Origin: a virus
Strand: one strand, 5' to 3'
IMG/VR virus record: IMGVR_UViG_3300046318_000520
Location: 32,001 to 96,000 of that record
Length of the DNA: 64,000 bases
In this document: one piece after another, positions 52,278-54,419 of the stretch
Position numbering within the stretch: the first letter of the stretch is position 1
Layout of the letters: each line of letters starts with the position of its first letter
Position numbers and translations under genes: made by a program
The notes under the pieces: model-generated
The model's database searches: none
The model's input: the letters and a program-made list of their open reading frames with translations, nothing else
What the model was told of the DNA's origin: nothing

Positions 52278-53381
52278 TTAGGCGTATTCAAAATGCTTGA
52301 TTTTTTCCTGGTCAAGATCTTTAAGAGCTTCTTTTACCCAGCGTTCATCTACCGTGTTCTTGTAACACAGGATGTGTACAATAGCAGTGTCATCAGGGTT
52401 AAGTCTAAGTAACCTGCCTATACGCTGATTAGACTTTCTCTCATTACCATATGCATGCATGATTATTCCGGCCCGAAGATTGGGAATATTAATACCCTCG
52501 TTGAGCTGCATTACACAGGAGAGCTGAGTTATTTCATCTCTTTTAAACTTGTCAAGATTAATTTCTGAATCAGCATTACCTGAGTGATAGGAATCTTTAC
52601 AGATACGGTCTGCCTGGTCCTGCGTATTACAAAAGGCAATACACTTGTCCTCTATTTCTGATAATAGATTCTTAGTATAGTGTTCTTTGGTTCTGAAGTC
52701 CATGATGACACGCATTCTCATGACAGATGATATCTGTTCTTCTTTTTTACTTTGTGCACGCATGATCCGGTCCGTCCAGTAGCCATAGCTTTTTTGCTCA
52801 GATGTATAAAACGTACCGTTTTTTGTTTTAACAGGGAAGTTATTCTCTGAAGACAAAGAAAGATAGTGCACTATGATACGGTAGTCATTAAGGATCTGGT
52901 CATCTACAGCATCGTCTGTTATATAGGTATATAGAACAGGACAATACCTGGAAACCATTTGACCTTTCTCACTTTGAGCATATCTGGGCGGAGTACCTGT
53001 GAGACCCAGTATTCTTTCCTTATATTGCACAAGAAAAAGATTATGGGAATATAACAAACTATGACACTCGTCCAGTATGACAATGTCATAGTTAACGGGA
53101 TCAAACTTATTCAAAGACAAATACGTAGTGAATTCTACGTTTTCTAAACTGATACCGAACTTTTCAGCATCTGATCTCCAGGAATCAAAGATGCTCAACT
53201 TAGGTGCTACGACTAATATCTTTAGCTTACCCATATTGAGATCCTGATAATGACTCATATACTTTAAACCAATAAGTGTTTTACCGACCCCCATGCTCAC
53301 AGCCAAACCTGCTCTTTTGTATTTAAAAGCTACTTCTAAAGCCTCAGCTTGTATACTGTCTCTTGTATTTTTTTGTTTCAC
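52278..53381 (-). CDS. SF2 (DEAH-like) helicase
   Basis: SMGVGKT, DECH, LTGT, EGINIP, QRIGRLLR. Confidence 0.88.
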   Translation of the reverse strand: MKQKNTRDSIQAEALEVAFKYKRAGLAVSMGVGKTLIGLKYMSHYQDLNMGKLKILVVAPKLSIFDSWRSDAEKFGISLENVEFTTYLSLNKFDPVNYDIVILDECHSLLYSHNLFLVQYKERILGLTGTPPRYAQSEKGQMVSRYCPVLYTYITDDAVDDQILNDYRIIVHYLSLSSENNFPVKTKNGTFYTSEQKSYGYWTDRIMRAQSKKEEQISSVMRMRVIMDFRTKEHYTKNLLSEIEDKCIAFCNTQDQADRICKDSYHSGNADSEINLDKFKRDEITQLSCVMQLNEGINIPNLRAGIIMHAYGNERKSNQRIGRLLRLNPDDTAIVHILCYKNTVDERWVKEALKDLDQEKIKHFEYA

Positions 53382-54006
53382 ATAACTGTTTTTTAGTTAT
53401 ACATTCTTGTTCTGGTCTTAATAGAAAATGATTTTTGTATCTACTAACAACTCTTTTTCCTTTAAGATTTATAGTACCGTTTACTACTGCTTGAGAATGG
53501 TTAAGCCCTGGATAAAGCTTTTCTAGTTTTTTACCAGCAGCTCTTTCAGACTCATATGTTCCTATACAGTTACAATTAATATCATAAATAACTACAGGTT
53601 TTTTCTTATCGTCATGAGTAGGATATTTAAGAAGTCCTAACAACTTTTGTTGTTTAAGCGTAGCTGAGGATTTTCTTCTAGACTCTTCAGAAGGAGTATT
53701 CCTAATAACCTCTAGCGTAATGTTGTATACTGGTTTTAAATTATTAATATACTCCTGCTCTTTTTGAGTCAGAAGTTTTACAGGAACTTCTTCAAGAATT
53801 AAAACATCAAAATGGTCTTGACCATGCTTATTGTAGCTATTTTGGAGATACGGATTAGCATGAATACCACGTTGTAACTCTGATTGGTGGCGTTTTAATC
53901 TGTAATAAATATTCTTACTACTACCGATGTACTGCTTTTTGTTCTTGATATTAGTTATACAGTAAATACCACAGATTTTTAAGCCAAAAGATCTAGAAAT
54001 GTTCAT
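53344..54006 (-). CDS. GIY-YIG homing endonuclease
   Basis: GIYCI...YIGSS.N...R...H...N..LQ....K.G, E, YN; NUMOD-like C-terminal part. Confidence 0.9.
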   Translation of the reverse strand: MNISRSFGLKICGIYCITNIKNKKQYIGSSKNIYYRLKRHQSELQRGIHANPYLQNSYNKHGQDHFDVLILEEVPVKLLTQKEQEYINNLKPVYNITLEVIRNTPSEESRRKSSATLKQQKLLGLLKYPTHDDKKKPVVIYDINCNCIGTYESERAAGKKLEKLYPGLNHSQAVVNGTINLKGKRVVSRYKNHFLLRPEQECITKKQLCETKKYKRQYTS

Positions 54007-54021
54007 AGGATTTAGGTTTAG

Positions 54022-54037
54022 TCTACAATATAATATA
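54022..54037 (-). promoter_or_regulatory. Putative late promoter carried by the GIY-YIG cassette
   Basis: TATATTATATTGTAGA on the minus strand, 15 nt before the ATG. Confidence 0.5.
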
Positions 54038-54148
54038 CTTAAAATGTAGAACTTTTACAAATAAACCCATGGAAATTCCCAAACCGCAACGTTTATTATT
54101 AAACGCTACGGTGAGAGCTTCCTGTTGGATCTCGTCTCTTTTAGACAT
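54023..54148 (-). pseudogene. Orphaned original helicase N-terminus (28 homologous codons + 13 read-through codons)
   Basis: MSKRDEIQQEALTVAFNNKRCGLGISMG aligns with helicase RDSIQAEALEVAFKYKRAGLAVSMG; ATG overlaps the stop of ORF 54141..54419. Confidence 0.8.
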
Positions 54149-54419
54149 ATTGTACGGTGTTTATACGAGCATGTAAGAATGCTGATACAATGATGTTTAA
54201 ATAACGAAGACAGGTTGTGTCAGCACGGTTAATAGCAGCATATAAATCATTATTACATACTGCTCGTACAAAATCCCCACCTGTCAACACACCATCTCTG
54301 TGCATCATTACAGATCTGACAATATCAGTAAGATGTAATTCTGGTTCAACATGCCAATTGCTAATAATTTCTTTGGCTTTCTGCGTATATGCATCTCTAA
54401 GCTCATCGTAATTATCCAT
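54141..54419 (-). CDS. Hypothetical protein
   Basis: GDFV.AV..NDL..A..RAD motif. Confidence 0.6.
   Translation of the reverse strand: MDNYDELRDAYTQKAKEIISNWHVEPELHLTDIVRSVMMHRDGVLTGGDFVRAVCNNDLYAAINRADTTCLRYLNIIVSAFLHARINTVQYV

Follow-up and report, generated by a model that had tools for sequence, protein, structure and literature searches.

A homing-endonuclease cassette in the P-loop codons of a phage helicase gene that probably carries a substitute start for the gene it interrupts

Mobile elements that bring along a replacement for the end of the gene they interrupt have been described from fungal mitochondria, where mobile open reading frames (mORFs) carry a foreign C-terminus; the portions of PMC3630166 used here report them for atp6 of Allomyces macrogynus and for atp6, atp9, cox2 and nad3 of Glomus sp. 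In the same portions, Allomyces is cited as the first mORF case, and the native gene ends are given as 91-98% identical to endonuclease-free relatives at the nucleotide level, compared with 64-81% for the inserted copies. For T4-type phages, the available part of bioRxiv 10.1101/2022.08.31.505936 describes the MobA/gene 60 cassette, in which a diverged homologous region replaces 55-75 nucleotides (nt) of the topoisomerase gene, with independent insertions in several clades and loss of the endonuclease over time. Moreover, excerpts of PMC2988022 describe mobE in nrdA of Aeromonas phage Aeh1 under the term 'genes in pieces' and the free-standing GIY-YIG endonucleases of the T4 Seg type under the term 'intronless homing'. 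Here, a GIY-YIG homing-endonuclease gene located within the P-loop codons of a phage helicase gene was analysed in a stretch of 64,000 nt (hereafter called the window), which corresponds to bases 32001-96000 of the 127,703-base IMG/VR virus record IMGVR_UViG_3300046318_000520. The record is estimated to be 99% complete and belongs to an uncultured freshwater phage, in which all genes relevant to the cassette are on the minus strand (-).

The locus is best described as an intron-less and intein-less homing-endonuclease cassette that colonised the P-loop codons of a superfamily 2 (SF2) helicase gene and carried with it a substitute for the first 31 codons; from sequence comparison, a probability of about 0.8 was assigned to this reading. 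The resident start is left upstream as a dispensable remnant, and the same comparisons place the cassette at an identical position in many unrelated helicase lineages, in which it decays after arrival. In the window, the displaced native 5′-end of the helicase gene (54148-54065 (-); 28 codons, MSKR...SMG) reads MSKRDEIQQEALTVAFNNKRCGLGISMG and is followed by the cassette of 776 nt (54064-53289 (-)), which sits between the SMG and the VGKT codons of the P-loop and the boundaries of which were set by the end of the remnant homology and the beginning of VGKT. The cassette consists of a conserved leader with a putative promoter-like character (54064-54007 (-)), the free-standing gene of a GIY-YIG homing endonuclease of 220 amino acids (aa), assigned by Pfam, PHROG and an I-TevI alignment (54006-53344 (-)), and the replacement 5′-end of the helicase gene (53381-53289 (-)), which has 31 codons with a GTG start, is in frame with VGKT and reads VKQKNTRDSIQAEALEVAFKYKRAGLAVSMG. 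The first 38 nt of this replacement start overlap the 3′-end of the endonuclease gene in a different frame. The resident helicase body then extends from VGKT (Walker A) through the ResIII and Helicase_C domains to the stop codon (53288-52278 (-)), and the whole helicase open reading frame (ORF) comprises 367 aa (53381-52278 (-)), with GTG as its presumptive start codon 38 nt ahead of the endonuclease stop. By its domain content the host gene is classified as an SF2 (ResIII/SNF2-like) phage DNA helicase with an ATPase core containing the P-loop and a helicase C-terminal domain (PF04851, ResIII, expect value (E) 2.2e-11; PF00271, Helicase_C, E 3.4e-9; PHROG 16 'DNA helicase', E 7.5e-38). The remnant itself forms part of an ORF of 41 aa (54148-54023 (-)), in which the 28 helicase-start residues are followed by 13 unrelated residues and a stop inside the cassette.

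Both starts were matched by a profile of the helicase N-terminus (remnant, E 3e-18; replacement start, E 1e-13) and 51 of 84 aligned bases are alike in the two copies (63% aa identity), which argues that the duplication is not a chance resemblance. The remnants resemble the local insert-free alleles and not the replacement copy in their own locus. In the window, the remnant shares 96% identity over 27 aa with the N-termini of the insert-free helicases P0001 and P0002, with 1 of its 28 residues differing, as opposed to the 63% shared with the replacement start, and in locus L034 the corresponding values are 100% and 44%. The replacement start retains all residues conserved without exception in an alignment of 40 helicases (Arg7, Gln11, Leu26 and Ser-Met-Gly), and the position of its start codon is common to nine cassette lineages (GTG in six, ATG in three). 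For codons 14-31 of the replacement, which do not overlap the endonuclease gene, the ratio of nonsynonymous to synonymous substitution rates (dN/dS) was 0.13-0.64, a value derived from a small sample of 18 codons.

The arrangement before insertion can be seen in relatives. Most of the best 120 helicase homologues begin with M[ST]KR..IQ..AL...GLGISMGVGKT without interruption. The closest insert-free relatives, P0001 and P0002, are contiguous across the site (MSKRDEIQQEALTVALNNKRCGLGISMGVGKT); the helicase body of the window is 91% identical over 334 columns to that of P0001, and the window is sister to P0001/P0002 on the helicase tree. A profile search of viral contigs yielded 80 helicase loci, 68 of which were insert-free, 11 of the cassette type, all with the same insertion site, and one cut off by the contig end. 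Each of the insert-free loci has a single contiguous start and is devoid of a duplicate of it and, by tblastn at E up to 1e-3, of an endonuclease in the flanks. The original prediction, made from the sequence of the window, had anticipated a contiguous MSKR...SMGVGKT in insert-free relatives, and this was borne out by P0001/P0002 and by the 68 of 80 viral loci. A DNA search of a named phage collection gave no match, and protein searches of named phages gave distant relatives only, the best being a helicase with 31% identity from Flavobacterium phages; therefore, no cultured or annotated example is present among named phages. No joint across the insert was found in contigs from four DNA runs, and no RNA run was found to contain the stretch. 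Contig depths in the DNA runs differed between the insert and its flanks, a difference from which no conclusion is drawn. In the freshwater runs X3 and X5, one contig shares positions 54114-54149 (36 bases) with the window and then continues into a different helicase start of the insert-free type (..EALDIATSNKRCG..). This phage is thus probably accompanied by a relative without the cassette.

The full set of remnant, endonuclease gene and replacement start was found at the same site in loci L001-3 (the same contigs as L034/36/37), L031/32, L011 and L104, and the remnant differs from one of these loci to the next, each being a locally typical start. For L034, the comparison with the insert-free locus L039 (remnant 91.8% identical over 85 nt, helicase body 86.7% identical) again gave an insert of 776 nt with the same junctions, ATGGG alone being common to both; the layout and the insert size put forward in the original prediction were exact to the base. 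In further loci, parts of the set are reduced. In L009 the remnant has been trimmed to some 20 nt, in L012 it is decayed, and it is missing from L026-28, where the last ~40 endonuclease codons are left ahead of the replacement start. Since the upstream fragment is trimmed, decayed or gone in these loci, their helicase would be made from the replacement start only, which upholds the earlier proposal that the replacement N-terminus restores the gene. In L099/L100, the remnant, the left junction (ATGGG..TTTGTAAAAG) and the replacement start are kept and the endonuclease ORF is gone; because the left junction is the cassette's own, these loci were interpreted as endonuclease-loss derivatives. The same arrangement was also found in a distant helicase clade of the ATGVGKT type (L106, L108, L110, L119), the endonucleases of which are 47-52% identical to that of the window. 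In two loci of this clade, one to three extra small ORFs are located between the intact remnant and the endonuclease gene (L110:1354-1581, L119:372-1301), so that the remnant survives even after growth of the insert.

In order to follow the cassette across helicase lineages, a FastTree phylogeny of 181 distinct helicase bodies (VGKT onward) was calculated, 16 of which had a cassette-type start. The cassette-type starts were scattered over this tree with 12 changes, at least 10 of them forced by well-supported branches. A second phylogeny was calculated with IQ-TREE from 68 rows (12 cassette-type and 56 insert-free), for which four near-duplicate cassette rows were dropped and the insert-free rows were hand-picked from 165 so as to comprise the nearest neighbours and all major clades. 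A single cassette clade was rejected at a cost of 862 log-likelihood units (approximately unbiased test, p-AU 7.3e-51). Moreover, in distant pairs the endonucleases are more alike than the host helicase bodies (89% vs 49% for L009/L104, 87% vs 59% for L009/L012 and 74% vs 52% for the window and L104), which indicates that the cassette moves between lineages. The element thus combines presence and absence at one fixed site with a phylogeny at odds with that of its host gene, as expected of a homing endonuclease.

The 220-aa ORF is intact and is predicted to encode an I-TevI-like GIY-YIG homing endonuclease with cleavage activity. It matched Pfam GIY-YIG (PF01541, E 1.6e-12, 48 bits compared with a cut-off of 22.6) and PHROG 'homing endonuclease' (E 8.8e-21), and it aligned to the catalytic domain of I-TevI (PDB 1MK0/1LN0, E 5e-13) with both Tyr, the Arg, the His and the Glu in matching columns, which we take to be the catalytic residues. 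The pairwise dN/dS of the endonuclease copies was 0.07-0.29, indicating purifying selection. Besides the 220-aa form, forms of 267-268 aa occur, and the segment present in the latter (alignment columns 210-255; L012 and L031 compared with the window) is helix-turn-helix-like. The helicase start overlaps the short-form gene by 38 nt in the window, compared with 11-14 nt for the long form. The 38-nt overlap (53344-53381) is identical in the window, L034 and L009 despite a helicase divergence of 26-28%, and differs by 2-3 bases in L026 and L104. It holds a run of seven A, which reads as an A_AAA_AAA heptamer in the frame of the endonuclease. The possibility that frameshifting at this run fuses the endonuclease to the helicase was considered and rejected, as the -1 frame soon stops and the run is absent in L011, L031 and L012.

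The insert could also be read as a group I or other self-splicing intron, in which case splicing would join 54065 to 53288 in the mRNA and the second start would belong to the intron and stay untranslated. Introns often encode I-TevI-like enzymes, the last base of the 5′-flank is T and that of the insert is G as at group I splice sites, and the uracil-DNA glycosylase gene in L011 is interrupted in an intron-like manner by an HNH ORF without duplication. However, Rfam intron models were unmatched in the window (E up to 10) and in nine cassette loci (E up to 1), and the insert holds only 58 nt before and 55 nt after the endonuclease ORF, too little for a ribozyme core. In addition, the second start continues the helicase frame and retains the invariant residues, with a dN/dS below 1, and L009, L012 and L026-28 are without a usable upstream exon, which together make splicing extremely unlikely. 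A Pfam scan of the endonuclease and helicase ORFs gave no Hint or intein domain either, so that the earlier claim of an insertion with neither intron nor intein has stood up. The latter result also bears on the idea that the active helicase is put together from the 41-aa peptide and the downstream protein, either by assembly or through a split intein. In most loci, the remnant has indeed persisted as an intact ORF and is coupled to the gene before it, and endonuclease-made split genes are known in T4-type phages, as the consulted part of PMC2988022 describes. The probability of such assembly is nevertheless put close to nil, given that the start of the downstream ORF is already complete, with the invariant Arg and Gln in place, that just 13 residues and no Hint domain follow SMG in the remnant, and that L009, L012 and L026-28 have either no remnant or a decayed one.

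Two further explanations differ from the favoured reading in the order or the age of events. If the helicase 5′-end had first been duplicated locally in tandem and the endonuclease had landed between the copies later, duplications lacking the endonuclease ORF would be accounted for, and L099/L100 are of this kind. A duplication without the endonuclease had been named with the original prediction as a finding that would speak against it; the configuration does occur, but it is no counter-evidence, since L099 keeps the invariant left junction of the cassette, indicating that the endonuclease was lost and not originally absent. Near-identical duplications without junction and endonuclease were found in 0 of the 80 loci. 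Where the remnant is complete, the copies within a genome mostly share 44-63% of their residues, and 33% in the case of L011, in contrast to the remnants, which match local insert-free alleles at up to 96-100%, and the replacement copies of L009 and L104 are 81% identical in helicases whose bodies share 49%. A duplication that preceded the endonuclease is accordingly very unlikely. The remaining explanation, that of one ancient and vertically inherited insertion, in which the insert-free alleles are many later losses by recombination and homing may have ceased, would agree with the large synonymous divergence (dS) between endonuclease copies, with the documented loss of the endonuclease and with the free recombination of phage genomes. 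It is unlikely in view of the at least 10 changes forced on the helicase tree and the rejection of a single clade, and it leaves unaccounted for the higher identity of endonucleases than of helicases in distant pairs, the purifying selection on the endonuclease (dN/dS 0.07-0.29) and the undecayed remnants that match local insert-free alleles.

The reading as a mobile cassette with a substitute gene start has to be weighed against several observations that count against it. The replacement starts are diverse (37-81% identical between cassettes) and the start is thus not always carried unchanged with the endonuclease, so that one has to assume some re-copying or the existence of several subtypes. 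The label 'cassette-type' was based on the motif K.?TR[DE], which was picked after the sequences had been seen. At the protein level, no co-conversion tract downstream of the junction was found in 10 pairs of a cassette and its nearest insert-free relative, the differences being evenly spread. The match of the endonuclease to NUMOD1 (20.5 bits) is under the cut-off of 22.8 for that model, and its short form of 220 aa is without the 48-aa C-terminal segment present in the 267-268-aa forms, whereby DNA binding could be weakened. The dS between the endonuclease of the window and most other copies is 1.1-2.0, which indicates an old element, and no recent arrival in this genome is claimed. Finally, support for a promoter is weak: the leader is conserved among cassettes and its promoter role is putative.

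The leader contains the invariant sequence TTTGTAAAA (54061-54053) and a conserved GTATATT-like box. The left junction, composed of ATGGG, 2-6 variable bases and TTTGTAAAA, is invariant in eight of eight aligned cassettes; in the window, TTTGTAAAA occurs seven times compared with 2.3 expected, and the other six sites are without common context. A sigma-70-like match at 54060-54032 was one of 13 found, compared with 10.2 +/- 3.2 expected, and hence not above chance. The strict promoter pattern of the Bacteroidota type, TTTG-N17-22-TAnnTTTG, had no match in the leader and one match elsewhere in the window compared with 3.5 expected. The 'promoter motif' of the original prediction was consequently reduced to a conserved leader. 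A scan of the window revealed no terminator-like site between the upstream genes and the helicase start, and therefore read-through from upstream could also supply transcription of the helicase gene.

For the spread of the cassette, the following mechanism is proposed. In a mixed infection, the endonuclease would cleave the helicase alleles of cassette-free relatives close to their P-loop codons, the proposed cutting and spread being modelled by analogy on characterised free-standing endonucleases (PMC2988022, in the part considered). Double-strand-break repair would then copy the 776-nt unit, with the remnant and the upstream DNA serving as the left arm and the helicase body as the right arm. 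Repair through such homology arms would cause the remnants to look locally fresh and would place the right boundary on the nearly invariant SMGVGKTLIGL codons. An invaded allele may be immune, as the insert separates the half-sites and the half-site beside VGKT is recoded. Recoding was compared between 55 distinct insert-free alleles and 10 cassette copies. The codon before Ser encodes Ile in 43 of the 55 insert-free alleles and in two of the 10 cassette copies, the Ser codon is AGY in eight of the 10 cassette copies as opposed to an insert-free consensus of TCN, and the Gly codon is GGT in 35/55 compared with 1/10. The helicase would be translated from the GTG codon (ATG in some relatives) inside the 3′-end of the endonuclease gene, by which its expression would be tied to transcription and translation through the cassette; a shift in the timing of expression, as suggested in the original prediction, may follow.

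The gene directly upstream of the remnant encodes a 92-aa protein of unknown function (54419-54141 (-)) that ends with ...TATGTCTAA, and its stop codon overlaps the ATG of the native helicase start (ATGTCTAA). Neither a Pfam nor a PHROG match was obtained for this ORF; a homologue also precedes the remnant in L001/L031. Additional endonuclease-like ORFs were observed in two of the related contigs. In L011 (4121-5361), the uracil-DNA glycosylase gene is interrupted in its ...ILGQD / PYP... motif by ~0.8 kb with a 192-aa HNH-like ORF. There is no coding duplication at this site, which is hence intron-like or a plain split, unlike the helicase case, and Rfam gave no intron match at this glycosylase locus. 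The window's own glycosylase gene (51569-50853) is uninterrupted. In L012 (3260-4210), a second GIY-YIG-like ORF of 316 aa directly follows the helicase ORF, which with 332 aa is short for the family; it is possibly another endonuclease at the other end of the gene.

With regard to their significance, these results suggest that a selfish nuclease can occupy a P-loop motif without RNA or protein splicing by bringing a substitute gene start. The related loci can be arranged as a series of fresh invasion, decay of the remnant, loss of the endonuclease and a permanent foreign N-terminus, which documents the life cycle of the endonuclease and explains the odd starts of some helicases in the family. 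For genome annotation, it follows that short 'orphan' ORFs beside endonuclease genes may be displaced gene ends. Pipelines for fragmented phage genes may join pieces of this kind to the gene that follows, which would be a mistake at this locus. Because the recognition site is in an almost invariant coding sequence, it could be easily mapped in vitro. We tentatively suggest, at slightly less than even odds, that a spare gene end is a general third route, beside introns and inteins, for free-standing endonucleases into those motifs of essential phage genes that are conserved most strongly and thus make the best targets; the cassette would hop among helicases of ~50% identity and shuffle their N-termini, including the Arg/Gln element before the P-loop, and the native start would be kept as the left homology arm and renewed at each homing.

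The comparison with the systems named at the outset is made as far as the cited portions of the sources describe them. The mORFs share with the present locus an endonuclease ORF that is accompanied by a diverged target-gene terminus in frame with the resident gene, and a native end displaced beside it (downstream in mORFs). In both cases, the native end is nearer to endonuclease-free relatives than the inserted copy, here with 96% vs 63% aa identity. Unlike mORFs, the cassette resides in a phage and not in an organelle, and it replaces the 5′-end and not the 3′-end, with the native piece upstream; for this reason, a start codon and possibly a promoter have to come with the cassette as well. 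The site inside the P-loop motif, the graded decay series and the visible spread across helicases of ~50% identity are further differences.

The MobA/gene 60 cassette resembles the helicase cassette in that a free-standing endonuclease is located in a conserved ORF without intron or intein and a diverged region replaces resident coding sequence (bioRxiv 10.1101/2022.08.31.505936; PMC2988022). Both ends of the interrupted ORF overlap the endonuclease ORF out of frame, there are multiple independent insertions at one site with close insert-free genomes, and the endonuclease is progressively lost and the scar stays. However, MobA is an HNH enzyme and its element is associated with a protein split into two required polypeptides, with added tails and with a translational bypass of 50 nt. 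Here, the enzyme is of the GIY-YIG type, the position is inside the P-loop motif, and the coding sequence ahead of the cut is exchanged completely and a start codon supplied, so that the upstream piece is redundant and neither a split protein nor a bypass is required. In agreement with this, the downstream helicase ORF is full length and needs no coding gap. Like mobE in nrdA of Aeh1, the endonuclease gene is free-standing in a critical region of an essential phage gene the function of which is kept, but the halves of the Aeh1 protein reassemble, whereas here one half is replaced by a cassette-borne copy.

With the Seg endonucleases, the present enzyme shares the I-TevI-like GIY-YIG domain, the lack of an intron and a spread that presumably proceeds through the repair of breaks during mixed infections. 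Seg genes are located between other genes, and co-conversion of flanking markers is the way in which they spread. The endonuclease gene described here is, unlike these, inside a coding motif and carries the repair of that motif. In the main text of the open-access literature, no phage case was found in which an endonuclease is accompanied by a gene start that is duplicated or serves as a replacement. The principle itself is known from fungal mitochondria and from one T4 element; the present locus is distinguished by the N-terminal orientation, the position in the P-loop and the unusually complete comparative series.

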